64,000 nt of DNA from Escherichia coli (GTDB lineage: Bacteria > Pseudomonadota > Gammaproteobacteria > Enterobacterales > Enterobacteriaceae). Position numbers and translations under genes: made by a program. Of the stretch, positions 35,369-64,000 are shown one piece after another (position 1 is the first letter of the stretch; the number at the start of each line of letters is the position of its first letter). The stretch lies in the NCBI RefSeq assembly GCF_024223415.1, contig NZ_CP100500.1; one strand, written 5' to 3'. The notes beneath the pieces were generated by a model. The model had not been told where the DNA came from, did no database searches, and worked only from the letters and a program-made list of their open reading frames with translations.

Positions 35369-36262
35369 TTACCAGCGCCCGGAAGCGCCACCGCCACCAG
35401 ATGAACCGCCACCACCGCTGAAATTGTCATTGTTGAATGAAGAGGATGACGATGATGAATAGTGGGAGGAAGAATTGCTTCTTGTATGGCGTGATGGCTG
35501 GTTGACATCACGCATCAAATCCCGAACTTTTTTGCCGAAGGGGGTAAAAGCGATGGCGACAGCCAGGAACGGTGTGGCGAAGCAGAGTAATGTTGCGAGT
35601 ACTCCCCAGCTTCCGCTGAAGCCTGCTATAGGTAAAACAAAGGCCAGTACAATAGCTGCGAAGCAAATTACTCCCAGCGTTTTGATATATCCTCTGGCAG
35701 AAATAAACGTCAGTACTATCGCCCAGACTAACAATGCCCACCAACCGCTAAAGGGCAAAGGGTGATCGGTCGGTGTTATCGTTGCTAAATTATTCCCCGT
35801 AAGACGACTTTCAATATCGCTGATCCCCTTTTGTAAACCGCCAGCTAGGTCGCCTTTTTTAAATGCAGGAATAATACTGTTGCGAATAATTTTCCTGGAC
35901 TGTGCATCCGTAATAATACCTTCCAGCCCGTAACCGATTTCAATACGCACGGTATGATCCTGCCAGGCGACTAACAGTAGAACGCCATCATCACGGTCTT
36001 TATCACCCGGTTTCCAGCTATCGAATACCCGCGTTGCGTACTGCTCGATGGTTTCATCGCCTGTTGTTTCAACCACTAACACGACCAGTTGTGCGTGGCT
36101 TTTTTGCGTCAGGGCTTTAATCTGGTTGGTCAGGGTGTTTACTTCGCTGTTTGTTAATGTGCCCGTTAAGTCATTCACATACTTGGGTGATTCAGGTACT
36201 GGAATTTGTGTGGCAAACACAGATGAACAGAAGAAAGCCATAAGGAAGATAAAATTTCGCAT
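35369..36262 (-). CDS. TPM-domain membrane protein, paralogue 3
   Basis: ORF track to 36292; the ATG at 36262 (MRNFIFLMAFFCSSVFATQ...) has a GGGGAAG SD and a signal-peptide-like N-terminus; TPM core nearly identical to paralogue 1; C-terminus GGGGSSGGGGASGRW. Confidence 0.8.
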   Translation of the reverse strand: MRNFIFLMAFFCSSVFATQIPVPESPKYVNDLTGTLTNSEVNTLTNQIKALTQKSHAQLVVLVVETTGDETIEQYATRVFDSWKPGDKDRDDGVLLLVAWQDHTVRIEIGYGLEGIITDAQSRKIIRNSIIPAFKKGDLAGGLQKGISDIESRLTGNNLATITPTDHPLPFSGWWALLVWAIVLTFISARGYIKTLGVICFAAIVLAFVLPIAGFSGSWGVLATLLCFATPFLAVAIAFTPFGKKVRDLMRDVNQPSRHTRSNSSSHYSSSSSSSFNNDNFSGGGGSSGGGGASGRW

Positions 36263-36275
36263 AGAACTTCCCCGC

Positions 36276-36878
36276 TTAATGAGCATTAGCATTCTGGCTA
36301 AAATCTATTGTTGGGGCTTTACTTACTGCGGCGACATCATCCGGCAAATAATTTTTCTTTGGTGTGTAATCCATGACCTTTGCGGTTAACACAGCGGGGA
36401 ATTTGCGGATAGTGACATTATATTGTTCAATGGCTTTAATATATCTTCCTCGCGCAACGGCAATCCGATTTTCACTTCCTTCAAGCTGTACCATTAAATT
36501 TTGATAGAGTTCCTGAGATTTTAACTCAGGGTAACGCTCACTAATTATCGTTAACTGACCGAGAGTGCGAGTCACCTGCGCTTGAGCCTGTTGCCAGGCT
36601 TGTAATTTTTGTTCATCTCCCGGAGTTTGCTGAAGATCGCTACTGGCGCGATTAGCCTGGCTACGAGCCAATGTTACGGCTTCCAGTACATCTCGTTCAT
36701 GGCTGGAATAACCTTTAATGCTGGCGACAAGATTAGGAATAAGATCGGCGCGACGTTGATATTGATTCAATACCTCAGACCAGGAGGCGTTAACCTGCTC
36801 ATCATAGGTTTGAATATCGTTATATCCACAGCCTGATAAATTGAAAATAAATATAATTACGATGAATATTCTGAGCAT
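36276..36878 (-). CDS. lemA: LemA-family lipoprotein
   Basis: 200-aa ORF with lipobox (FNLSGC) and LemA-family helical region; first gene of the four-gene minus-strand operon. Confidence 0.8.
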   Translation of the reverse strand: MLRIFIVIIFIFNLSGCGYNDIQTYDEQVNASWSEVLNQYQRRADLIPNLVASIKGYSSHERDVLEAVTLARSQANRASSDLQQTPGDEQKLQAWQQAQAQVTRTLGQLTIISERYPELKSQELYQNLMVQLEGSENRIAVARGRYIKAIEQYNVTIRKFPAVLTAKVMDYTPKKNYLPDDVAAVSKAPTIDFSQNANAH

Positions 36879-37050: not shown

Positions 37051-37722
37051 ATGCAGTACCCGATTAACGAGATGTTCCAGACCCTGCAAGGTGAGGGTTA
37101 CTTTACCGGCGTCCCCGCCATTTTTATTCGTTTACAGGGATGCCCGGTTGGCTGTGCCTGGTGCGACACCAAACACACCTGGGAAAAGCTTGAGGATCGG
37201 GAAGTCTCCCTTTTCAGCATTCTGGCGAAGACCAAAGAGAGTGATAAGTGGGGGGCGGCGAGCAGTGAAGATTTGCTGGCTGTCATTGGTCGCCAGGGAT
37301 ACACCGCGCGGCATGTGGTGATTACGGGTGGTGAGCCTTGCATTCATGATTTGCTACCACTGACAGATCTGCTCGAAAAGAACGGTTTTAGCTGCCAGAT
37401 CGAAACCAGTGGTACTCATGAGGTACGCTGCACACCGAATACCTGGGTTACCGTATCACCAAAGCTGAACATGCGCGGCGGCTATGAAGTGTTGTCACAG
37501 GCACTGGAGCGAGCCAACGAAATCAAGCATCCAGTGGGACGCGTACGTGATATTGAAGCACTGGATGAACTTTTGGCGACGCTGACCGATGATAAACCGC
37601 GAGTCATTGCACTGCAGCCGATTAGCCAAAAGGATGATGCCACACGTTTGTGCATTGAAACCTGCATTGCGCGTAATTGGCGTTTGTCGATGCAAACCCA
37701 TAAATATTTAAATATTGCCTGA
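37051..37722 (+). CDS. queE: 7-carboxy-7-deazaguanine synthase (radical SAM)
   Basis: 223-aa ORF MQYPINEMFQTLQGEGYFTGVPAIFIRLQGCPVGCAWCDTKHTW (CxxxCxxC-type cluster motif). Confidence 0.93.
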   Translation: MQYPINEMFQTLQGEGYFTGVPAIFIRLQGCPVGCAWCDTKHTWEKLEDREVSLFSILAKTKESDKWGAASSEDLLAVIGRQGYTARHVVITGGEPCIHDLLPLTDLLEKNGFSCQIETSGTHEVRCTPNTWVTVSPKLNMRGGYEVLSQALERANEIKHPVGRVRDIEALDELLATLTDDKPRVIALQPISQKDDATRLCIETCIARNWRLSMQTHKYLNIA

Positions 37723-38060
37723 TTAAACATTTATAAGCGTTATAAATGGGTGGAAACTGTAAAGACTTCTACTCATTTATATTCTTTGTCGTCTCTGAAA
37801 AACCTCCATTTTGCCCATCCTGAACTAATCATTATCATTCTCTACAAATTCTGTGGCGTTAATTTTTCGCTGGAGTGAAAACTATTGCGGTAAAGTTTGG
37901 TAGATTTTAGTTTGTATAGAGTTATTTTAAATATTTACCTTTTTAATCAATGGGTTAAGTGCTCTTTAACATGATGGATGTGTTGTTTGTGTGATACTGT
38001 AAAGTTGGTAGATTGTGACTGGCTTAAAAAATCATTAATTAATAATAGGTTATGTTTAGA
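37723..38060 (+). promoter_or_regulatory. CRISPR leader (AT-rich, promoter-containing)
   Basis: About 340 bp of AT-rich sequence ending ...TATGTTTAGA immediately before repeat 1; repeat orientation places the leader on this side. Confidence 0.65.
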
Positions 38061-38760
38061 GAGTTCCCCGCGCTAGCGGGGATAAACCGGCTGGATACCG
38101 ATCAATTCAATATCGTTTTACGAGTTCCCCGCGCTAGCGGGGATAAACCGGAATACCGATTCATAACGGCGGAAATGTGGATGAGTTCCCCGCGCTAGCG
38201 GGGATAAACCGGTTAATGATGTCAGTGGCGGTTTTCGTATCGCGAGTTCCCCGCGCTAGCGGGGATAAACCGAGTGAGGCAATCAAATGACCCGCCCGCA
38301 ATTAGAGTTCCCCGCGCCAGCGGGGATAAACCGTAAATCCCTCGCGCATCGAGTCAAATGTCGGAGAGTTCCCCGCGCCAGCGGGGATAAACCGGTCGCT
38401 GGAACGGGGCGAATAAAGAGGGGCTCGAGTTCCCCGCGCCAGCGGGGATAAACCGACAGCTCTTTCCCGTCGTTATCCAGTTGGTAAGAGTTCCCCGCGC
38501 CAGCGGGGATAAACCATATGATTCACGAATTACAGGAAACCAGCCGCCGAGTTCCCCGCGTCAGCGGGGGTAAACCGCTATCGGGGTGATTCTGCCAATG
38601 CTCAGAGTGGTGTTCCCCGCGCCAGCGGGGATAAACCGAGCGTTTGCTCCGGGTGGAATAACCCTGGCGGGTGTTCCCCGCTCCAGCGGGGATAAACCGT
38701 TTGCTGGAACCCAAAACTCAGCGCACAGGTTGTGTTCCCCGCGCCAGCGGGGATAAACCA
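38061..38760 (+). CRISPR. Type I-E CRISPR array, 12 repeats and 11 spacers (CRISPR2.3-equivalent locus between queE and ygcE)
   Basis: 29-nt repeat GAGTTCCCCGCGCCAGCGGGGATAAACCG with 32-nt spacers at an exact 61-bp period; repeats start at 38061, 38122, 38183, 38244, 38305, 38366, 38427, 38488, 38549, 38610, 38671, 38732; repeats 1 to 4 carry GCGCTAGC, repeats 10 to 12 begin GTGTT, repeats 8 and 12 end in A. Confidence 0.97.
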
Positions 38761-39229
38761 CCATATAACCCGTTATCTCTTTCTCAAGTTTTTATATTAG
38801 CTGTACTTGTAATAAGCAACATATCCACGTAACACCTCATGTTCAAAATAGTTCCCCATGCCAGATAAGTTCACAATTATCGATACAAAAAATTAAATTT
38901 AATCAAAGTGTTATTTGTATAATTCTTAAGCCGTTAAGAAATTTTAATCTATTATTTTTTTAATATTAATTAATGCCTGTTAATTTTTTCTTTAGTATAA
39001 CAGTGTATTTTTTAAGCTTGTTATTCATTGATTAAGTAATAAATCTGGAAATTTGTCTTTGTTTTGAGGCTAATGAGTGGTTTTACATAACCGCCTCTAT
39101 ACGCTGTTGATGAATAGTTCTTATGAATAAAGATATCCAGTTCATACTTTAAGTGAAAATTGATAAAGTGCGATTCGTATTGTCTTTTATTCTAAAGACA
39201 TCGAGTGTAGTTAATATTCCTTGTAAAAA
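38761..39229. other. AT-rich spacer block between the array and the remnant (possible second leader or H-NS-bound region)
   Basis: About 470 bp, strongly AT-rich, no ORF of 60 aa or more. Confidence 0.4.
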
Positions 39230-39351
39230 CAGGGATAAACCGAACTAGTTAAAGTTTTTATTATGTTCCCTGCATCAGCGGGGATAAACCGGACTTGTTA
39301 TCATTTTTTAAGTTGTCGAACTTATGTTCCCCGCGCCAGCGGGGATAACCA
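39230..39351 (+). CRISPR. Degenerate CRISPR remnant (CRISPR2.2-like): one truncated and two degenerate repeats
   Basis: CAGGGATAAACCG (partial), ATGTTCCCTGCATCAGCGGGGATAAACCG (5 mismatches) and ATGTTCCCCGCGCCAGCGGGGATAACCA (1-nt deletion); spacers of 20 and 32 nt. Confidence 0.75.
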
Positions 39352-39397
39352 TTCAGGTATGTTCAGGCCGGGCAGTTTCCCGCCCGGTCTTCCTCAC

Positions 39398-40876
39398 TTA
39401 CGCATTCGACCAGCTCTGGATCGAATCCGCATTCCCCAATTCCCCATGCATCACTTCATACGATTTTTTCAGGATCACATCAGTATGTTTGGTTAGGTCT
39501 TTGAAAATGCCTTTATTCATCGCGTCGTAGCGTTTGGCATTGCTCTCAATCGGTATAAAGATATCTTTCACGCGAACCATTTTATCGACAGCCGTTGCGT
39601 AATCCGGGTATAGCCCCAGACCTACCGCTGTATTAATCGCTGCCCCCAGGCTTGCACAACCGTTAATGGCGTTACGGCGTGCCGGAAGGTTGAACACGTC
39701 GGCAAAAATCTGCATAAACAGATCGCTGTTCGAACCGCCGCCAGTAATGATCACATGCTTTGCAAAGTGATTCATTTCATTACACATATTGTCGTAATTG
39801 TTCTTCAGCGTCAGCGCCACGCTTTCCAGTATAGAACGATATATCCATGCGTAATCCATGCTGGAATCAAAGCCGATCATAATCCCACGTTTGTAGGGTT
39901 CCCACGGGTTGGTCAGCCAGTCCAGCACCGTCATCAGACCATTACAGCCAGGCGGCACACAAGAAGCTTTTTTGTTGAGCAAATCTTCCGGTGAAAGATC
40001 CTGTGCTTTGGCATCCTGAATTAACGACTCGCCTAGCATGTCGCGCAGCCAGCTCACCGTCCACATGCCTTTACGGATACCGTAACCTTCATACAGCAAT
40101 GTTTGCGGAATAGAAGACATAATCGGCCAGTACGCCACCGGATCTTTCGGCAGTGCTTTGCCGTTCATCATCAATGCGATGTAAGTGCCAAGAGAAATTA
40201 CCGCCGTTTCATCATCCAGTAATCCGGCCCCCAGAGCTTCTACCGGTTTATCACTGGTGGTACAAACAACCGGCAGTCCTGCCGGGAAATGTGTCGCCAG
40301 TGCGGCTTGTGGTGTGATATGTCCGAGGACGGTGCCAGGCATTTGCACATCAAACAGCATATGACGGGGGATATTAAACTTATCCATTACCGCAGCATCT
40401 TCACTCCATGCCCAGCTCTTATAATCCACCGGCCACTGACCAAAATAGTTGGAGATATTGTCTTTAAACTCGCCGGTTAAGCGATGCGTCAGATAACCCG
40501 AAAAAGAGGTGACATAGGCCACGTCAGGATTAGTGTGTTCGTAGGGACGCGTTACGCGTGCATCCTGCCAGCTAATCAATGGCGCAGCTGGCGTGCCATC
40601 GGCTTTCAATAACGCACGGCAGCAACGGATGGATCCCAGACCAATACCGACAATATCTTCTTTATTCCCGGCAAACTGACTCATCAAATCGTGACCGGCA
40701 AAACATAATGATGCCCATAAATCGTCGTCAGGATGTTCTGCGGTATCGGCATCTGGCGTGTGCATCGGCTGCAATAAGCCTTTACCTTCGCAAACCACAT
40801 TACCTTCCAGATCGTACATCACCACTTTTGTGCTCTGACTTCCGCCATCAATCCCTATGATGTATTTTTTCGACAT
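39398..40876 (-). CDS. ygcE: FGGY-family carbohydrate kinase YgcE
   Basis: 492-aa ORF MSKKYIIGIDGGSQSTKVVMYDLEGNVV... (FGGY N- and C-terminal domains). Confidence 0.88.
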   Translation of the reverse strand: MSKKYIIGIDGGSQSTKVVMYDLEGNVVCEGKGLLQPMHTPDADTAEHPDDDLWASLCFAGHDLMSQFAGNKEDIVGIGLGSIRCCRALLKADGTPAAPLISWQDARVTRPYEHTNPDVAYVTSFSGYLTHRLTGEFKDNISNYFGQWPVDYKSWAWSEDAAVMDKFNIPRHMLFDVQMPGTVLGHITPQAALATHFPAGLPVVCTTSDKPVEALGAGLLDDETAVISLGTYIALMMNGKALPKDPVAYWPIMSSIPQTLLYEGYGIRKGMWTVSWLRDMLGESLIQDAKAQDLSPEDLLNKKASCVPPGCNGLMTVLDWLTNPWEPYKRGIMIGFDSSMDYAWIYRSILESVALTLKNNYDNMCNEMNHFAKHVIITGGGSNSDLFMQIFADVFNLPARRNAINGCASLGAAINTAVGLGLYPDYATAVDKMVRVKDIFIPIESNAKRYDAMNKGIFKDLTKHTDVILKKSYEVMHGELGNADSIQSWSNA

Positions 40877-55801: not shown

Positions 55802-58501
55802 ATGCGTAAATATCCTTTAAGTTTACTGAAGGATAAAAATATTGTGACTTTCTTTGATTTCTGGGGAAAAACCCGACGCGACGAGAAAGAAGGGGGTGAC
55901 GACTATCACCTTCTTTGCTGGCATTCGCTGGATGTGGCCGCGATGGGCTATTTAATGGTTAAAAGAAATTGCTTCGGGCTGGCTGATTATTTCCGTCAAT
56001 TAGGGATTTCTGACAAGGAACAGGCGGCTCAATTTTTCGCCTGGTTGTTGTGCTGGCACGATATTGGAAAATTTGCCCGCTCATTTCAGCAACTTTACCT
56101 GCACCCACAACTCAAGGTTCCGGAAGGCGCAAGAAAGAATTACGAAAAGATCTCTCATTCAACGCTGGGCTACTGGCTGTGGCATCATTATTTAAGTGAA
56201 TGCGAAGAATTGCTTCCTGCCTCTTCACTCTCTACTCGCAAACTTAAACGTGTAATAGCGATGTGGATGCCCATGACTACCGGGCATCATGGTCGCCCGC
56301 CTGACCGTATTGATGAACTGGATAATTTTCTGCCTGAAGACAAAGCTGCCGCGCGAGATTTTCTCCTTGAAATCAAGCCACTGTTTCCGCAGCTAGAGAT
56401 CCCCGCATTCTGGGATGATGACGAGGGCGTTGAACTTATAAAACAACTTTCCTGGTATATCTCTGCAACCGTCGTACTTGCAGACTGGACAGGATCGTCA
56501 ACGCGATTTTTTCCACGCGTCGCACAGACAATGGATATTGAAGATTACTGGCAAAAGGCTTTAGTTCAGGCTCAAAACGCATTAACCGTCTTTCCTCCAA
56601 AAGCAGAAACCGCGCCTTTCACCGGAATTAATACGCTGTTTCCTTTTATTGAGAATCCGAAACCGTTACAGCAAAAGGTGCTGGATCTGGATATCAGCCA
56701 GCCAGGACCGCAGTTATTTATTCTGGAGGATGTAACCGGCGCAGGTAAAACAGAAGCGGCGCTTATCCTGGCACACAGGTTGATGGCTGCGGGTAAAGCT
56801 CAGGGTTTGTTTTTTGGCCTGCCAACAATGGCAACGGCCAATGCCATGTACGATCGGCTGGTCAAAACCTGGCTTTCTTTCTATTCGCCAGAATCCCGCC
56901 CCAGCCTGGTGCTGGCACACAGTGCCCGCACATTAATGGACCGCTTTAATGAATCACTCTGGTCCGGTGATTTAGTCGGGTCAGAAGAACCGGATGAACA
57001 AACGTTCAGTCAGGGATGTGCGGCCTGGTTTGCCGACAGTAACAAGAAGGCGTTGCTGGCTGAAATTGGCGTCGGCAAGCTGGATCAGGCGATGATGGCA
57101 GTGATGCCGTTTAAACATAATAATCTGCGGCTTCTGGGGTTGAGTAACAAAATCCTGCTGGCTGATGAGATCCACGCCTGTGACGCTTACATGTCGTACA
57201 TTCTTGAAGGGTTGATTGAGCGACAGGTGCGTGGCGGAAACAGCGTCATTTTGCTTTCTGCTACGTTATCTCAACAGCAGCGCGACAAACTTGTCGCCGC
57301 CTTTGCGCGTGGCACAGAGGGCCAGCAAGAAGCTCCGTTCCTGGAAAAGGATGATTACCCCTGGCTGACGCATGTCACGAAATCCGATGTGCATTCGCAC
57401 CGGGTAGCGACGCGCAAAGACGTTGAGCGTAGCGTGAGCGTGGGTTGGCTTCATAGCGAACAAGAATGTATTGCGCGTATCGAATCAGCGGTAAGTCAGG
57501 GGAAATGCATCGCCTGGATCCGGAATTCTGTCGATGACGCTATTAAGGTTTATCGTCAGTTACTTGCCCGCGGCGTCATTCCTGCTTCCAGCCTTTCACT
57601 TTTTCATAGCCGCTTTGCTTTTAGCGATCGCCAGCGAATTGAAACGGAAACGCTGGCACGCTTTGGTAAAAATTGTAGTTTAAAAAGATCATCTCAAGTC
57701 ATTGTTTGTACACAAGTAATTGAGCAAAGTGTGGATATTGACCTGGACGAAATGATCTCCGACCTGGCCCCCATTGATTTGCTGATCCAGCGAGCGGGGC
57801 GATTACAACGGCATATTCGCGATATTAATGGTCAGTTAAAGCGTGATGGAAAAGACGAGCGTTCCCCTCCTGAATTGCTGATTCTGGCCCCCGTCTGGGA
57901 CGACGCTCCTGGTGACGAATGGTTCGGCAGTGCCATGCGTAACAGTGCATATGTCTACCCGGATCATGGGCGAATCTGGCTGACCCAGCGTGTGCTGCGT
58001 GAGCAAGGCGTTATTCAGATGCCACACTCAGCCCGCCTTCTTATTGAATCAGTCTACGGTGAGGACGTGGTAATGCCGGACGGATTTGCCCGCAGCGAGC
58101 AGGAGCAAGTGGGCAAATATTACTGCGATCGCTCAATGGCTAAAAAGTTTGTGCTGAACTTCAGGCCCGGCTATGCCGCCAATATCAACGATTACCTTCC
58201 GGAAAAGCTGTCGACACGTCTGGCTGAGGAATCTGTTTCCCTGTGGCTGGCTAGCTGTATTAACGGCGTGGTGAAGCCTTATGCCAGCGGTGCTCACGCA
58301 TGGGAAATGAGCGTTGTCAGAGTGCGCCGAAGCTGGTGGAAAAAACATCGGGATGAGTTTTCTTTACTGGAAGGGGAAGTGTTAAGGCAGTGGTGCATTG
58401 AACAGCGGCAAGATCCGGAGATGGCAAACGTGATTTTAGTCACCGATGACGAAAGTTGCGGGTATTCGGCTACGGAAGGATTGATTGGCAAGGTTGATTG
58501 A
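55802..58501 (+). CDS. cas3: Cas3 helicase-nuclease (HD domain plus superfamily-2 helicase), type I-E
   Basis: 899-aa ORF; HD motif (HLLCWHSLDVAA...WHDIGKF), Walker A (TGAGKTEAA), DEAH-like (LLADEIHA); start may be internal (GTG at 55844) because the ATG at 55802 lacks an SD. Confidence 0.92.
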   Translation: MRKYPLSLLKDKNIVTFFDFWGKTRRDEKEGGDDYHLLCWHSLDVAAMGYLMVKRNCFGLADYFRQLGISDKEQAAQFFAWLLCWHDIGKFARSFQQLYLHPQLKVPEGARKNYEKISHSTLGYWLWHHYLSECEELLPASSLSTRKLKRVIAMWMPMTTGHHGRPPDRIDELDNFLPEDKAAARDFLLEIKPLFPQLEIPAFWDDDEGVELIKQLSWYISATVVLADWTGSSTRFFPRVAQTMDIEDYWQKALVQAQNALTVFPPKAETAPFTGINTLFPFIENPKPLQQKVLDLDISQPGPQLFILEDVTGAGKTEAALILAHRLMAAGKAQGLFFGLPTMATANAMYDRLVKTWLSFYSPESRPSLVLAHSARTLMDRFNESLWSGDLVGSEEPDEQTFSQGCAAWFADSNKKALLAEIGVGKLDQAMMAVMPFKHNNLRLLGLSNKILLADEIHACDAYMSYILEGLIERQVRGGNSVILLSATLSQQQRDKLVAAFARGTEGQQEAPFLEKDDYPWLTHVTKSDVHSHRVATRKDVERSVSVGWLHSEQECIARIESAVSQGKCIAWIRNSVDDAIKVYRQLLARGVIPASSLSLFHSRFAFSDRQRIETETLARFGKNCSLKRSSQVIVCTQVIEQSVDIDLDEMISDLAPIDLLIQRAGRLQRHIRDINGQLKRDGKDERSPPELLILAPVWDDAPGDEWFGSAMRNSAYVYPDHGRIWLTQRVLREQGVIQMPHSARLLIESVYGEDVVMPDGFARSEQEQVGKYYCDRSMAKKFVLNFRPGYAANINDYLPEKLSTRLAEESVSLWLASCINGVVKPYASGAHAWEMSVVRVRRSWWKKHRDEFSLLEGEVLRQWCIEQRQDPEMANVILVTDDESCGYSATEGLIGKVD

Positions 58502-58598
58502 GATGTCTGCGACAGGACTCTCTGAATAGTTGATATACAGAAAAGGATGGAAAGATGGACAACCGACCTGGGATGGTCTTTTTTACGAGAGGATGCGT

Positions 58599-60161
58599 AT
58601 GAACTCGTTTTCACTTCTGACAACCTCGTGGTTGCCCGTTCGTTTTAAAGACGGAACGACAGGCAAACTGGCACCAGTCGATCTGGCTGATGAAAATGTT
58701 GTCGATATCGCTGCGCCGCGGGCAGATCTCCAGGGTGCGGCATGGCAGTTTTTGCTGGGGCTACTACAAACCAGCTTCGCGCCAAAAGATCATCGTCGTT
58801 GGGATGATATCTGGGAAGACGGACTGGAATCTGAAAAGCTACGGGAAGCATTGCTGTCATTAGAACACGCTTTCCAGTTTGGGCCAGATTCCCCTTCATT
58901 TATGCAGGATTTCGAGGCGCTCACGGGAGATAAAGTTCAGATCGCTTCGTTACTGCCTGAGATTCCCGGCGCTCAAACAACGAAGTTTAATAAAGACCAT
59001 TTTATCAAGCGTGGTGTAACGGAATACCTGTGTCCTCATTGTTCAGCGTTAGCCCTGTTCTCCCTACAGTTAAATGCACCGTCAGGCGGCAAAGGCTATC
59101 GCACCGGTTTACGCGGCGGTGGGCCGATGACCACTCTTATTGAATTACAGGAATATCAGGGCAATCAACAAACACCCTTATGGCGCAAACTGTGGCTCAA
59201 TGTGATGCCGCAGGATGAAGCCGACTTACCGCTACCCAAAAAATTTGACGATCTGATTTTCCCCTGGCTTGGCCCGACGCGTACCAGCGAACTGGCCGGT
59301 GCGGTGGTAACCGATGATCAGGTTAATAAACTCCAGGCGTACTGGGGAATGCCACGGCGTATTCGTATTGATTTTAATACCACGACAGTCGGCAACTGCG
59401 ATATTTGCGGCGAGCAGAACGACGCGCTCCTGAACCTGATGACGACCAAAAATTACGGCGCTAACTATGCCATGTGGCAGCATCCCTTAACGCCTTACCG
59501 TATACCACTTAAAGAGGGTGGCGAGTTTTACTCCGTTAAACCACAACCGGGCGGTTTAATCTGGCGCGACTGGTTAGGCCTTATCGAAACGGGTAAATCA
59601 GAAAACAATACGGAACTTCCCGCGCTGGTGGTGAAACTCTTTAATGCCAGCAGTCTGAAACAGGCAAAAGTGGGCCTATGGGGATTTGGTTATGATTTCG
59701 ACAATATGAAAGCGCGCTGTTGGTACGAACACCATTTCCCGCTGCTGCTCAATAAAAAAGAAGGCCAGATACCGAAACTGCGGCTGGCTGCGCAAACGGC
59801 TTCACGGATTCTGAGTCTGTTACGGAGTGCATTGAAAGAAGCGTGGTTCTCCGATCCAAAAGGTGCACGGGGTGATTTCAGTTTTGTGGATATCGACTTC
59901 TGGAACAAAACTCAGCATCGCTTCCTGAGGTTAGTGCGCCAAATTGAAGAAGGTCAGGATCCAGATGAATTACTCGGCAAATGGCAAAAGGAAATTTGGT
60001 TATTTGCGCGTCAGGATTTTGACGAGCGTGTATTCACCAATCCTTATGAGCCCGTTGATTTGAAACGCGTCATGACCGCACGCAAGAAATATTTTACAAC
60101 ATCGGCGGAGAAGCAAAATGCTAAAGCCGCCAGGGAGAAAAAGCAGGAGGCTGCTGAATGA
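58599..60161 (+). CDS. cse1: Cascade large subunit Cse1 (CasA / Cas8e)
   Basis: ORF track begins at a TTG (58530); the ATG at 58599 (MNSFSLLTTSWLPVRFKDG...) has a GAGAGG SD; Cse1 N-terminal signature; 520 aa. Confidence 0.88.
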   Translation: MNSFSLLTTSWLPVRFKDGTTGKLAPVDLADENVVDIAAPRADLQGAAWQFLLGLLQTSFAPKDHRRWDDIWEDGLESEKLREALLSLEHAFQFGPDSPSFMQDFEALTGDKVQIASLLPEIPGAQTTKFNKDHFIKRGVTEYLCPHCSALALFSLQLNAPSGGKGYRTGLRGGGPMTTLIELQEYQGNQQTPLWRKLWLNVMPQDEADLPLPKKFDDLIFPWLGPTRTSELAGAVVTDDQVNKLQAYWGMPRRIRIDFNTTTVGNCDICGEQNDALLNLMTTKNYGANYAMWQHPLTPYRIPLKEGGEFYSVKPQPGGLIWRDWLGLIETGKSENNTELPALVVKLFNASSLKQAKVGLWGFGYDFDNMKARCWYEHHFPLLLNKKEGQIPKLRLAAQTASRILSLLRSALKEAWFSDPKGARGDFSFVDIDFWNKTQHRFLRLVRQIEEGQDPDELLGKWQKEIWLFARQDFDERVFTNPYEPVDLKRVMTARKKYFTTSAEKQNAKAAREKKQEAAE

Positions 60162-60694
60162 GTATTGTAAAAGAGGAGCACAAAGCCACGCTGCGTAAAT
60201 GGCACGAAGAGTTGCAGGCTAAACGCGGCAATCGTGCCAGTCTGCGGCGTAGCACAACGGTTAATGATGTTTGCTTGTCAGAAGGGTTTCGTTCTCTGCT
60301 GATGCAGACCCACACTTTGTGGAAAATTGAAGCACAAGAGTGGCGTTTTACCGCACTGGCGCTGGTCGCCGCAGTTAGCGCCAATGTAAAAGCCATTGAT
60401 GAACGGCAGCCTTTTGCCGCGCAGCTGGCGGCGGTAATGTCGGAGGGGCGTTTTACTCGCCTGTCGGCAGTAAAAACGCCGGATGATTTACTGCGTCAGT
60501 TACGTCGCGCGGTCAAATTATTAAACGGTTCCGTCAATCTTATCTCTTTGGCAGAAGATATTTTCCGCTGGTGTCAGGAGAGCGACGACCTGCTCAATCA
60601 TCACCGCCGCCAGCAGCGGCCAACCGAATTTATCCGTATCCGCTGGGCACTGGAATATTACCAGGCTGGCGACGCCGATAACGAACAAAATTAA
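60158..60694 (+). CDS. cse2: Cascade small subunit Cse2 (CasB)
   Basis: 178-aa ORF; ATGA overlap with cse1; position in operon. Confidence 0.85.
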   Translation: MSIVKEEHKATLRKWHEELQAKRGNRASLRRSTTVNDVCLSEGFRSLLMQTHTLWKIEAQEWRFTALALVAAVSANVKAIDERQPFAAQLAAVMSEGRFTRLSAVKTPDDLLRQLRRAVKLLNGSVNLISLAEDIFRWCQESDDLLNHHRRQQRPTEFIRIRWALEYYQAGDADNEQN

Positions 60695-60708
60695 TAAAGG
60701 ACTATCTC

Positions 60709-61764
60709 ATGACAACATTTATTCAGCTTCATTTGTTAACCGCTTACCCTGCTGCCAACCTTAACCGTGATGATACTGGTGCGCCAAAAACTGTGGTACT
60801 GGGTGGTGCAACGCGTCTGCGCGTTTCCTCACAAAGTCTGAAACGTGCGTGGCGCACTTCTGCACTTTTTGAACAGGCACTGGCGGGCCATATTGGTATT
60901 CGCAGTGGGCGAATTGCGCGTGAGGCGGCAACTATCCTGATTGAGAAAGGAATCGAAGAGAAAAAAGCCATCGAATGGGCGGCAAAAATTGCGGATTATC
61001 TTGGGAAAGCTAAAAACGACAAAAAACCAAAAGATCCGCTCACTAACGCCGAAACTGAACAATTAGTTCATATCAGCCCGGCAGAATTTGACGCCGTAAA
61101 AGCGCTGGCCCATCAACTGGCAGAAGAAAAGCGCGCGCCAATAGAGGAAGATCTCGCGTTGTTACGTAAAGACCGTATAGCGGTAGATATCGCTATGTTT
61201 GGTCGTATGCTGGCGAATAAACCTGAGTTTAATGTTGAAGCCGCCTGCCAGGTCGCGCATGCGTTTGGTGTCAGTGAAACGATTGTCGAAGATGATTTTT
61301 TCACCGCCGTTGATGATTTGCGCCAGGCCTCTGAAGATGCCGGTGCCGGGCATCTCGGAGAAACCGGATTCGGTTCAGCACTTTTCTACACCTATATCTG
61401 CATTGATAAAGATCTGCTGGTAGAAAACCTCGGCGGTGACGAAGCGTTAGCTAATCAGACCATACGCGCTTTTACGGAAGCCGCACTTAAAGTCTCCCCA
61501 ACCGGCAAACAGAACAGCTTTGCCAGCCGTGCCTACGCCTCCTGGGCGCTGGCAGAAAAAGGCACCGAACAACCGCGTTCTCTGGCGGCGGCTTTCTATG
61601 AACCCATTAATGGCACCCGGCAGTTAGATGTGGCGGTGCAGCGTATTACAACGCTTCGCGAAAACATGAATACGGTCTACGAACAGAAGACCGAATGCGT
61701 AAGTTTTGACGTGATGAACAAACAGGGAAGCATGAAGGACGTGCTGGACTTTATCTGCGCGTAA
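60709..61764 (+). CDS. cas7: Cascade backbone subunit Cas7 (CasC)
   Basis: 351-aa ORF MTTFIQLHLLTAYPAANLNRDDTGAPKTVVLGGATRLRVSSQSLKRAWR. Confidence 0.9.
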   Translation: MTTFIQLHLLTAYPAANLNRDDTGAPKTVVLGGATRLRVSSQSLKRAWRTSALFEQALAGHIGIRSGRIAREAATILIEKGIEEKKAIEWAAKIADYLGKAKNDKKPKDPLTNAETEQLVHISPAEFDAVKALAHQLAEEKRAPIEEDLALLRKDRIAVDIAMFGRMLANKPEFNVEAACQVAHAFGVSETIVEDDFFTAVDDLRQASEDAGAGHLGETGFGSALFYTYICIDKDLLVENLGGDEALANQTIRAFTEAALKVSPTGKQNSFASRAYASWALAEKGTEQPRSLAAAFYEPINGTRQLDVAVQRITTLRENMNTVYEQKTECVSFDVMNKQGSMKDVLDFICA

Positions 61765-61774
61765 GGGGCGGCTT

Positions 61775-62521
61775 ATGAGCCAATATCTGATTTTTCAGCT
61801 TCATGGGCCGATGGCATCCTGGGGCGTCGATGCTCCCGGCGAAGTGCGTCATACCCATGAACTGCCTTCGCGCTCAGCATTGCTGGGGTTACTGGCTGCC
61901 GGGGTAGGGATTCGGCGTGATGATACCGAACGATTAAACGCGTTTAACCGCCACTATTCACTGGTGGTTTGCGCCAGCCGTAACCCGCGCTGGGCACGGG
62001 ATTATCACACGGTCCAGATGCCAAAAGAGGTGCGTAAATCGCGTTATTTCAGCCGTCGCGAAGAGTTGAGCGATCCTGATCTTCTGAGCGCAATTATCTC
62101 CCGGCGCGACTACTACACCGATGCCTGGTGGATGGTGGCGGTGGCAACAACCCCCGATGCGCCTTACAGCCTTGAACAGTTGCAGGAAGGTTTACGTCAT
62201 CCGGTTTTTCCGCTTTATCTGGGGCGAAAAAGTCATCCGCTGGCATTACCACTCGCGCCGTTACTGATCGAAGGCAACGCGTCTGATGCCTTATGTAACG
62301 CATACCAACAGTATCAGGATAGTTTCCGCGAACTGAAAGTCTCACTCCCGAAACTTCAGGATGAATGCTGGTGGGAAGGGAAACACGACGGCCTGGTCGC
62401 GAGCAAAATATTACGTCGCCGGGATGTTCCTTTGAATCGTCAGCAGTGGCTGTTTGGGGAACGCACCGTCAATCAGGGGCCGTGGCTCAGCAAGGAGGAA
62501 CCATGTACCTCTCAAGAATAA
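61775..62521 (+). CDS. cas5: Cascade subunit Cas5 (CasD)
   Basis: 248-aa ORF MSQYLIFQLHGPMASWGVDAPGEVRHT... Confidence 0.9.
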   Translation: MSQYLIFQLHGPMASWGVDAPGEVRHTHELPSRSALLGLLAAGVGIRRDDTERLNAFNRHYSLVVCASRNPRWARDYHTVQMPKEVRKSRYFSRREELSDPDLLSAIISRRDYYTDAWWMVAVATTPDAPYSLEQLQEGLRHPVFPLYLGRKSHPLALPLAPLLIEGNASDALCNAYQQYQDSFRELKVSLPKLQDECWWEGKHDGLVASKILRRRDVPLNRQQWLFGERTVNQGPWLSKEEPCTSQE

Positions 62522-63153
62522 CCTTACATACCGGCCAGCTTTCGCCTGCGCAGTTGTTGCATCTGGTGGATCGCGGTGAATATGTGATGCATCAGTGGCT
62601 GTGGGATCTCTTCCCAGGCGGCAAAGAAAGGCAATTTCTTTATCGTCGGGAAGAACTCCAGGGCGCGTTTCGCTTTTTTGTCCTGTCGCAGGAACGCCCG
62701 GCGGAAAGTGAAATGTTCACCATCGAATGCCGACCATTTGCGTCGGAGTTGCGTACCGGACAATCGCTTTGTTTCAACCTGCGGGCGAATCCAACAATCT
62801 GTAAAGCGGGCAAGCGCCACGATCTGCTGATGGAAGCGAAACGGCAGGTGAGGGGGCAGGCGGAAGGAAGTGATGTCTGGTTGCATCAACAACAGGCAGC
62901 GCTGGACTGGCTGGCAGCGCAGGGGGAGAGAAGCGGTTTTACACTGCTGGATACCTCGGTTGATGCCTACCGACAACAGCAACTCCGGCGGGAAAACTCC
63001 CGACAACTGATCCAGTTCAGTAGCGTGGATTATACGGGGATGCTTACGGTCACCGATCCTGGGTTATTTCTGCAACGTCTGAGCCAGGGGTATGGCAAAA
63101 GCCGCGCGTTCGGCTGTGGTCTGATGCTGATCAAACCCGGAGCAGAGGCGTGA
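62503..63153 (+). CDS. cas6e: crRNA endoribonuclease Cas6e (CasE)
   Basis: ATG at 62503 with AGGAGG SD (MYLSRITLHTGQ..., 216 aa); C-terminal GCGLM motif; overlaps cas5 by 19 nt. Confidence 0.88.
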   Translation: MYLSRITLHTGQLSPAQLLHLVDRGEYVMHQWLWDLFPGGKERQFLYRREELQGAFRFFVLSQERPAESEMFTIECRPFASELRTGQSLCFNLRANPTICKAGKRHDLLMEAKRQVRGQAEGSDVWLHQQQAALDWLAAQGERSGFTLLDTSVDAYRQQQLRRENSRQLIQFSSVDYTGMLTVTDPGLFLQRLSQGYGKSRAFGCGLMLIKPGAEA

Positions 63154-64000
63154 CGTTTGTACCACTGAGTCCGATCCCGTTAAAAGATCGCACCTCTATG
63201 ATCTTCCTCCAGTACGGTCAAATCGACGTACTGGACGGCGCTTTCGTGCTGATCGACAAAACCGGGATCCGCACGCACATTCCGGTGGGATCGGTCGCCT
63301 GCATTATGCTCGAACCGGGAACGAGAGTTTCCCACGCGGCGGTGCATCTGGCCGCCACGGTGGGAACACTGCTGGTCTGGGTCGGTGAAGCGGGCGTTCG
63401 CGTTTACTCTTCCGGACAACCCGGAGGGGCGCGGGCAGATAAATTACTCTACCAGGCAAAGCTGGCTTTAACGGAAGATCTACGCCTGAAGGTGGTGCGC
63501 AAAATGTATGAATTACGTTTTCGTGAGCCACCGCCAGCTCGCCGTTCAGTGGATCAGCTACGGGGAATTGAGGGATCCCGCGTTCGCCAGACCTATGCAT
63601 TACTGGCGAAACAATATGGTGTGAAATGGAATGGTCGCAAATACGATCCTAAAGACTGGGAAAAAGGCGATGTTGTGAATCGCTGCATCAGTGCTGCCAC
63701 ATCATGTCTGTACGGTATTTCTGAAGCGGCAGTATTAGCCGCGGGATATGCGCCCGCTATTGGATTTATTCATAGTGGCAAACCGCTTTCATTTGTTTAT
63801 GACATAGCCGATATCATTAAATTTGATTCGGTTGTGCCAAAGGCATTTGAAATAGCGGCAAGACACCCGGCAGAATCTGATAAAGAAGTCAGATTAGCCT
63901 GTCGCGATATTTTCCGTAGCACTAAGTTAACGGGCAAATTAATACCGTTAATTGAGGAAGTCCTTGCTGCAGGTGAAATTGAACCACCACAACCCGCGCC
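63150..64000 (+). CDS. cas1: Cas1 integrase; N-terminal about 283 codons, 3' end beyond window
   Basis: GTG at 63150 (GTGA overlap with the cas6e stop); translation VTFVPLSPIPLKDRTSMIFLQYGQIDVLDGAFVLIDKTGIRTHIPVGSVACIMLEPGTRVSHAAV...; absent from ORF track because there is no stop in the window. Confidence 0.92.
   Translation, partial: MTFVPLSPIPLKDRTSMIFLQYGQIDVLDGAFVLIDKTGIRTHIPVGSVACIMLEPGTRVSHAAVHLAATVGTLLVWVGEAGVRVYSSGQPGGARADKLLYQAKLALTEDLRLKVVRKMYELRFREPPPARRSVDQLRGIEGSRVRQTYALLAKQYGVKWNGRKYDPKDWEKGDVVNRCISAATSCLYGISEAAVLAAGYAPAIGFIHSGKPLSFVYDIADIIKFDSVVPKAFEIAARHPAESDKEVRLACRDIFRSTKLTGKLIPLIEEVLAAGEIEPPQPA

Follow-up and report, generated by a model that had tools for sequence, protein, structure and literature searches.

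The CRISPR array at positions 38061–38760 (+ strand) of the window, which is the whole 64,000-nucleotide stretch of Escherichia coli DNA analysed here, is best read (probability about 0.85) as the CRISPR2.3 array of a clone with a non-K-12 cas operon, in which copying of the first repeat would have given nested repeat haplotypes. The newest of these haplotypes, a block of repeats with a C-to-T change at position 14 (C14T; hereafter the T block), would be ancestral to the clone and would since then have suffered only losses. As judged from the comparison of seven related genomes, the array is an incomplete, eroded and inherited record in which no strain-specific acquisition is visible. The evidence comes from the organization of the locus, the distribution of the repeat variants, the spacer content of related strains, the spacer targets and the occurrence of C14T in other arrays.

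Locus, leader and cas operon

The array is a real and ordinary one, namely the chromosomal type I-E array CRISPR2.3 of E. coli at the CRISPR-II locus, between queE and ygcE; in related E. coli genomes, the RefSeq annotation likewise has a 'CRISPR' feature at this site. The features around it are:

37051..37722, + strand: queE (ygcF), upstream flanking gene (open reading frame; annotated in relatives)
37723..38060, + strand: leader 2.3, AT-rich, between queE and repeat 1 (from GC content and conservation)
39263..39352, + strand: CRISPR2.2 remnant with two degenerate repeats and one spacer, 502 bp after repeat 12
39398..40876, − strand: ygcE, downstream flanking gene (open reading frame; annotated in relatives)
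55802..64000, + strand: type I-E cas operon with cas3, cse1, cse2, cas7, cas5, cas6e and cas1 (NCBIfam equivalog hits), cut by the end of the window

The leader is 338 nt long with a GC content of 0.30, against 0.50 for the window, and its last 50 nt together with repeat 1 were matched in 4083 of 5426 E. coli genomes, nearly all of them at ≥95% identity. Since an AT-rich leader with a conserved repeat-proximal 50 nt lies on this side, the array is read on the + strand and repeat 1 is the newest. A simple scan for promoters and terminators in this region stayed at background level and gave no convincing promoter. In addition, no Rfam family reached its threshold in 37700–39500, where the 29-nt repeat scores low and the corresponding families may be absent from the release. 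The CRISPR2.2 remnant and its spacer are identical in every sampled strain that keeps the remnant, and the layout of CRISPR-II, with this remnant at about 0.5 kb from CRISPR2.3, is as previously described (PMC3903273).

The cas operon is located 17 kb downstream of the array, with cas2 beyond the end of the window. The K-12-specific models of Cas3 and Cse1 scored below their cut-offs, and the cas region showed 96% DNA identity to the cas genes of VG12A2, which adjoin a CRISPR2.1 of the GTG type. On these two grounds, the operon is the non-K-12 (cas-EO-type) variant described in PMC3737337.

Organization of the array and repeat variants

Parsing at a 61-nt step gave 12 direct repeats of 29 nt and 11 spacers of 32 nt. 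The repeats start at 38061, 38122 and so on to 38732, with a period of exactly 61 nt and 0–2 substitutions per repeat, and both the period and the copy number are far beyond chance. The first-pass annotation had described the 12 repeats with their variants and the 11 spacers (38090–38121, 38151–38182 and onwards), and parsing found all of them in place.

With GAGTTCCCCGCGCCAGCGGGGATAAACCG as the reference for repeat variants, R1–R4 carry C14T (GCGCTAGC) and R5–R7 are identical to the consensus. R8 has G29A, R9 has C13T and A22G, and R10–R12 have A2T and thus start with GTG. Besides A2T, R11 has G12T and R12, the terminal repeat, has G29A and ends in ...ACCA. The blocks obtained by repeat parsing and the spacers whose targets are given below are:

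38061..38272, + strand: newest block, repeats 1–4 with C14T (GAG type with a GCUA loop), around spacers 1–3 (a, b, e)
38305..38577, + strand: middle block, repeats 5–9, GAG type without C14T
38610..38760, + strand: oldest block, repeats 10–12, GTG type, with the private G12T of R11
38090..38121, + strand: spacer 1 (a), the newest
38151..38182, + strand: spacer 2 (b)
38334..38365, + strand: spacer 5 (h)
38456..38487, + strand: spacer 7 (j)

The consensus repeat and every variant are predicted to fold into a 7-bp stem with a GCCA tetraloop in the consensus, that is, a putative stem-loop of the kind bound and cut by Cas6e. C14T falls on the third base of this predicted tetraloop and leaves the hairpin and its energy (−15.1 kcal/mol, predicted) unaltered, and at this loop position the change is probably neutral. 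C13T and G12T are also at loop positions of the predicted hairpin, and A22G converts the closing U-A pair into U-G with the predicted fold being kept. An assembly artefact was considered as the source of the variants and was rejected because the same variants are present in five clean independent assemblies.

Repeats at the distal end

The first-pass annotation had interpreted the changes of R8–R12 as terminal degeneration. Only the private changes in R9 and R11 fit this interpretation: the GTG start is a repeat type, the final A of R12 is constant at this locus and that of R8 probably has another origin.

GTG and GAG repeats are the two main repeat types of E. coli, with GWG as their consensus (PMC3338789, PMC3737337). 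In PMC3737337, where the opposite strand is written, the names CRISPR-T and CRISPR-A are given to GAG and GTG, respectively. By the base that defines the two types (A or T at the second position), R1–R9 are GAG and R10–R12 are GTG. Both in the window clone and in four other arrays, GTG repeats were seen at the distal end and nowhere else, a distribution that points to an older inherited block and not to decay. The array of TUM13936, in which a GTG repeat is followed by a GAG terminal repeat, misfits this simple nesting.

As regards position 29, the final A is constant in the terminal repeat of CRISPR2.3, here R12; it was found in 17 of the 17 sampled arrays with a separate CRISPR2.3. For the A that ends R8 another origin was considered. 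The base at position 29 arrives with the spacer from the last base of the protospacer adjacent motif (PAM), and the second and internal repeats are not copied (Swarts et al., 2012, PMC3338789; PMC3737337). Position 29 is also the most variable private position in our data, with three of the nine private substitutions (one each to A, C and T) among 103 distinct repeat-spacer units. By analogy with the published experiments, the A that ends R8 is likely PAM-derived. All four protospacers found in this work have G at the third PAM base, the same base as in the repeats preceding those spacers. For spacer 8 itself (TATGATTCACGAATTACAGGAAACCAGCCGCC), no protospacer was found in IMG/VR, JGI metagenomes, GTDB genomes, INPHARED, PLSDB or E. 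coli genomes.

The only true private mutations are C13T and A22G in R9 and G12T in R11, and they are old. The variants of R8, R9 and R11 are unchanged in five clean assemblies of clone-mates, and the changes of R9 and R11 never spread to neighbouring repeats. Inherited repeat types or PAM-derived bases can look like decay in the leader-distal part of an array.

Spacer content in related genomes

Any of the 11 spacers was shared by 70 of the 5426 complete E. coli genomes, and most of the array was common to six of these: KV7 (pig, Denmark), NCTC10444 (calf), NCTC9112, GPEC1446 (chicken, USA), SCU-316 (human, USA) and O78 strain 3 (human, China). The 23.7-kb upstream flank was about 100% identical only in the same six array-sharing genomes, the next best being 99.3%; they and the window genome make up one clone. 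When the spacer order was compared with that of the CRISPR2.3 arrays of other strains, as the first-pass annotation had proposed, these six sister strains showed the same order as the window. The seven arrays are ordered subsets of a master order, a b c g d e f / h i j k l m n, in which C14T repeats give way to consensus repeats at the oblique bar:

O78 strain 3: all 14 spacers, with i duplicated
NCTC9112: without a
KV7: without g
NCTC10444: without d and e
SCU-316: without a, b, c and g
GPEC1446: without a to e, a single T repeat being kept
Window: without c, g and d

The SCU-316 assembly has homopolymer indels in the array, and R9 reads differently there; it was used only for the presence or absence of spacers.

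The deletion in the window is internal, of 183 bp (3 × 61 bp) between identical T repeats, and removed c, g and d. Its junction is:

38183..38211, + strand: repeat 3, junction of the internal deletion of c, g and d (b-c-g-d-e in O78 strain 3 and NCTC9112 versus b-e in the window)

As c, g and d sit between spacers that the window has, their absence can only be due to loss. All the differences between strains in spacer presence lie inside the T block, the distal spacers being shared and stable. These differences consist in the loss of one to five adjacent units, to which one duplication is added, and no private spacer was found in any of the seven arrays.

The leader gave additional information about the age of the newest spacer. 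At position −98, the window and NCTC9112 have C, which is the ancestral base as it is that of the outgroups, and the other five genomes have A. Spacer a was found in both groups and is therefore older than the split of the clone. Taken together with parsimony, this single leader SNP leads us to the loss-only reading, according to which the T block would best be explained as having been complete (a b c g d e f) in the ancestor common to the seven members sampled, with the present differences being losses. GPEC1446, SCU-316 and NCTC9112 lack only leader-proximal spacers and could instead be earlier snapshots of a growing array.

These data also modify what had been deduced from the window alone. 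The first-pass annotation had stated that at least three spacers were acquired after the T mutation, and this is right as a lower bound (window spacers 1–3), but the clone-mates show six (a b c g d e), so a single array under-reports its own history, three of the six post-mutation spacers being missing here. It had also proposed that the repeat variants record the history of acquisition; the T repeats do mark the newer part, but the record is incomplete through the loss of c, g and d. The further idea that the T block is recent must be abandoned, because the same block occurs in the same order in six other genomes and spacer a predates the split marked by the −98 SNP. A repeat SNP common to several repeats dates order, not recency.

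Targets of the spacers

Targets in phage or prophage genes were identified for four of the 11 spacers. Spacer 1 is identical at 32 of 32 positions to a tail-protein gene of the uncultivated phage contig IMGVR_UViG_3300011584_000016 (L010 9675–9706). This gene belongs to phrog_2837 and adjoins a tail-fibre gene, and the triplet upstream of the protospacer is GTG, not AWG. Spacer 2 matches (32/32) the replication endonuclease gene of a P2-like prophage present in six E. coli genomes (L005 6001–6032), with the PAM ATG. The target of spacer 5 (31/32; PAM ATG) is a gene of phrog_3654 placed between the tail sheath and tail-fibre genes on the contig IMGVR_UViG_2529293142_000021 (L026 7800–7831, minus strand). 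Finally, STEC384 and STEC379 carry a prophage whose tail and baseplate module contains the target of spacer 7 (32/32; PAM ATG; L006 6001–6032). The chance that at least three of four PAMs are AWG is about 1e-4. ATG, written CAT in that work, is the commonest natural PAM of leader-A/cas-EO systems (PMC3737337), and the three ATG PAMs agree with the cas-EO preference.

The search of all 11 spacers in INPHARED and PLSDB with E values up to 10 yielded only chance-level partial matches, some of which crossed the artificial spacer joins of the concatenated query. For the eight spacers then unmatched, a distant-mode search of E. coli genomes returned only other CRISPR arrays, and scanning IMG/VR for exact 26-mers of spacers 3, 4, 6, 8, 9 and 10 returned nothing. 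INPHARED, PLSDB and the E. coli genomes yielded nothing credible for seven spacers (3, 4, 6, 8, 9, 10 and 11). With respect to self-targeting, no site with up to 8 mismatches was detected in the window, and none was seen outside the array region in the genomes of the clone-mates at megablast sensitivity. The second match place returned for O78 strain 3 is probably its array, split by the duplicated spacer i. The first-pass annotation had pointed to phages, plasmids and the host itself as the sequences in which to search the spacers, and such is the outcome: phage or prophage matches for 4 of 11, and no self-target within the limits just given.

C14T in other arrays

C14T is not private to the lineage of the window. 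A 79-nt query formed by leader and T repeat was found exactly in 11 genomes among the matches listed, and 20 of 4083 reached ≥99% identity. C14T blocks head four other, spacer-unrelated array lineages (Combat11I9/L26/23CRST011, PapRG-06-5/strain 48, ET350 and TUM13936), whose spacers are entirely different in the T part and in the older part alike. The T blocks comprise 5–12 repeats and account for half or more of most arrays carrying them, although the sample was chosen for T at R1 and this length thus comes without a control.

The T block runs uninterrupted from repeat 1 in 13 of the 15 T-block arrays (the window and 12 others). A block anchored at the leader is, as expected, the pattern that copying of the first repeat predicts, and the claim of the first-pass annotation that a first-repeat mutation is inherited by later repeats and marks the newer spacers is borne out by it. 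In JX21CE8 and 23CRST027, a consensus repeat 1 is followed by six T repeats. Because these two arrays carry an alternative leader haplotype (−238G/−191T/−107A/−101C), the sequence indicates that their leader end was replaced by recombination. The single, isolated internal C14T of 81EVA, absent in its relatives, is an independent private mutation. C14T has also been tabulated among the repeats of Klebsiella and Salmonella.

All arrays with T at R1 have one leader haplotype, −191C/−107G/−101T, and a non-T O157 strain has the same one. Comparison of flank haplotypes revealed that the flanks of the C14T arrays are mosaic, and the window clone has leader variants of its own at −306, −179 and −88. 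A Dcm-site hot spot for C14T was also considered and dropped, as the context is CCAGC and not CCWGG.

Mechanism and alternative explanations

In the mechanism that we propose, whose duplication step is taken from published experiments, new spacers would enter at the leader-repeat junction and the first repeat would be duplicated. As the first repeat is the template, a substitution in it would be inherited by every newer repeat, and internal substitutions would stay private. Three nested repeat haplotypes would in this way have succeeded one another in time: GTG (R10–R12), GAG (R5–R9) and GAG with C14T (R1–R4). The last base of each repeat would arrive with the spacer from the PAM, this being the likely source of the final A of R8. 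Units would afterwards be lost by recombination or slippage between identical repeats, as c, g and d may have been in the window.

The most direct alternative is that the T block reflects recent and ongoing spacer uptake by this strain, the array being an active, up-to-date diary of its encounters. The leader, the predicted hairpin and the cas operon are intact, the newest spacers match phages, and the three relatives that lack only leader-proximal spacers form a nested pattern that growth could give. However, each of the window's spacers recurs elsewhere in the clone, in genomes that come from different hosts and continents; no spacer is private to any of the seven arrays; the absence of c, g and d between kept spacers is a loss; and the −98 SNP places spacer a in the common ancestor. 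We consider this explanation very unlikely and already largely refuted. A graft of the T block, imported by homologous recombination from another C14T E. coli onto older repeats, is unlikely too. In its favour, the five spacer-unrelated lineages headed by C14T differ in their distal blocks and have mosaic flanks, the −191C/−107G/−101T leader is common to all arrays with T at R1, and JX21CE8 and 23CRST027 provide examples of a leader end exchanged by recombination. Against it, a search of 5426 genomes placed the T-block spacers a–f in this clone alone, coincidental matches of single spacers aside, the leader has the clone's own variants at −306, −179 and −88, and recombination was not needed to explain E. 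coli arrays in a published analysis (PMC4524480). Moreover, import of the leader and R1 alone would have the same outcome as a mutation of R1, and would barely change the reading of the window.

Two other explanations concern the repeats themselves. Repeat recombination certainly occurs in these arrays, as the deletions and the duplicated spacer i of O78 strain 3 reveal, and gene conversion or unequal exchange could spread variants among neighbouring repeats independently of acquisition. Such concerted evolution is, nevertheless, hardly credible here and the least probable of the alternatives, since the T blocks have their anchor at repeat 1 and no patchy one was seen, the private variants of R9 and R11 have not spread in any member of the clone and the isolated C14T of 81EVA stayed single. 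A functional C14T, which by raising the efficiency of integration or altering crRNA processing would account for long T blocks, is highly improbable. Blocks of 5–12 units that make up half or more of most carrier arrays, and the recurrence of the variant in other genera, would fit with it; but the change is in the loop with an identical predicted fold, the block lengths come from a sample picked by T at R1 and without a control, GPEC1446 retains one T repeat only, and C-to-T transitions are expected to recur at unconstrained positions.

Inherited copies of a mutated first repeat, later eroded by deletion, remain the preferred reading of the window. In a broader and doubtful extension, the C14T first repeat would descend from a single old allele at the end where CRISPR2.3 grows, tied to one leader haplotype, and would have been carried or recombined into at least five E. 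coli array lineages with unrelated spacers, each of which would have added 5–12 spacers. If this were true, C14T would form a nested barcode together with the older switch from GTG to GAG, and dated genomes could be used to calibrate natural rates of spacer acquisition and loss, in a system generally taken to be silent. In a stronger form of this reading, C14T would itself favour integration.

Earlier work on E. coli has already described the array and its locus, both repeat types, a last base derived from the PAM, polar growth and erosion through deletions, and RefSeq genomes already include this array allele in their annotation; the mechanism is not new, and the case matters little beyond this clone. 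The presence of the C14T block on several array backgrounds is a minor curiosity, with a possible use as a natural marker for CRISPR turnover in populations.

Comparison with known CRISPR systems

The window closely resembles the CRISPR-II locus of E. coli K-12 and O157:H7: it has the same site, leader 2.3, the 61-nt unit, the CRISPR2.2 remnant at about 0.5 kb and the same repeat consensus, GWGTTCCCCGCGCCAGCGGGGATAAACCG, which is the type-2 consensus of PMC3338789. Spacers count as 33 nt if the PAM-derived base is assigned to them. The window differs from K-12 and O157:H7 in its spacer set, limited to one clone of seven genomes including that of the window, and in the loop change C14T of its four newest repeats; the literature compared here, including that found by a search on repeat sequences, makes no mention of C14T in E. 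coli repeats.

The non-K-12 cas genes, and ATG (CAT in PMC3737337) at three of the four protospacers, are shared with the cas-EO/leader-A variant (Diez-Villasenor et al., 2013, PMC3737337). The cognate CRISPR2.1 lies outside the window, so that leader A is a putative assignment here. While the CRISPR2.1 of the cas-matched VG12A2 is of the GTG type, most repeats of the CRISPR2.3 of the window are of the GAG type.

The work of Swarts et al. (2012, PMC3338789) was experimental and done in K-12, whereas here the pattern was read from natural arrays only. Both have in common a position 29 that varies inside arrays and a first-repeat variant that is propagated when internal ones are not. Finally, in the model of Kupczok et al. 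(2015, PMC4524480), E. coli arrays are inherited vertically and diverge through differential deletion of spacers. In our case every loss is within identical C14T repeats, which differs from that model and, the events being few, may be due to chance; otherwise the agreement is close, as the seven clonal genomes differ by losses of adjacent units and one duplication and keep a stable distal end.

Sequence changes in the arrays of the clone and of two other strains

The CRISPR2.3 arrays of the strains forming one clone with the window genome were compared spacer by spacer, the letters a to n denoting the spacers of their master order. Besides spacer loss, point mutations accumulate in the spacers that these strains share. 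The first base of spacer b in KV7 showed a G to A substitution (L001 2652), and the last base of spacer e in NCTC9112 a C to T substitution (L007 1776). In O78 strain 3 a tandem duplication of spacer i was identified (L008 1411-1532), and repeat 1 of this strain (L008 923-951) carried an additional C11T change, which would give a G-U pair in the stem. The array of SCU-316 (L004 2565-3200) presented homopolymer insertions and deletions in both repeats and spacers. Because such changes are typical of uncorrected long reads, the repeat variants of this strain were not considered trustworthy.

JX21CE8 and 23CRST027 are two exceptions to the leader-anchored block of repeats with the C14T loop change. 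In both of them (L019 2551-2640 and L020 2551-2640, respectively) repeat 1 was consensus and repeats 2 to 7 carried C14T, and an alternative leader haplotype was present. It looks as if the leader, the first repeat and the first spacer had been replaced by recombination, with the crossover located in repeat 2.

Spacers shared with other arrays and their targets

About 30 further E. coli genomes contain, with identical sequence, spacer 2 of the window (38151-38182), whose target is a P2-like replication endonuclease gene. Its position was checked in one of these strains, VG12A2, where the copy (L009 2501-2532) was located in CRISPR2.1, adjoining cas2 and with GTG-type repeats at both sides. The presence of spacer 2 in two arrays is attributable either to independent capture of the same protospacer or to spacer transfer between arrays. 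Arrays of the EC1515 group hold a variant of spacer 5 (window 38334-38365) with one mismatch. In EC1515 itself, about 26 kb separate this variant from the CRISPR2.3 array, so that its location is presumably CRISPR2.1. Spacer 11 of the window also occurs in O169:H41 strains.

Spacer c, lost from the window and kept by its clone-mates, shared 27 of its 32 positions (KV7, L001 2713-2744) with spacer 7 of Combat11I9 (L011 2946-2977), which belongs to the old part of an array unrelated to that of the clone. This likeness suggests that the same site was captured repeatedly, from related phages. For the newest spacer, spacer 1 (window 38090-38121), the sole protospacer found, on a phage contig from IMG/VR (L010 9672-9706), has GTG where AWG was expected. 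The sequence found could belong to a relative that has diverged from the actual donor, or could represent PAM escape.

Surroundings of the CRISPR-II locus

The following features were located at both sides of the array:

39212-39352, CRISPR2.2 remnant and an extra repeat-like copy
35369-36878, minus strand, LemA-family gene and TPM-domain gene, upstream of queE

The CRISPR2.2 remnant has two repeats, and the third, strongly degenerate repeat-like copy lies at about 39212-39240. The single spacer of the remnant was identical across all the examined strains retaining it. The LemA-family and TPM-domain genes are present in the window and its relatives, whereas in ATCC 8739-like strains this position is occupied by ygcG together with a frameshifted yqcG; therefore, the region upstream of queE is variable. 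At the CRISPR-II locus of the ATCC 8739 group (L018, L022, L024 and L025), an IS421 element lies between two runs of repeats, resulting in a long split array.
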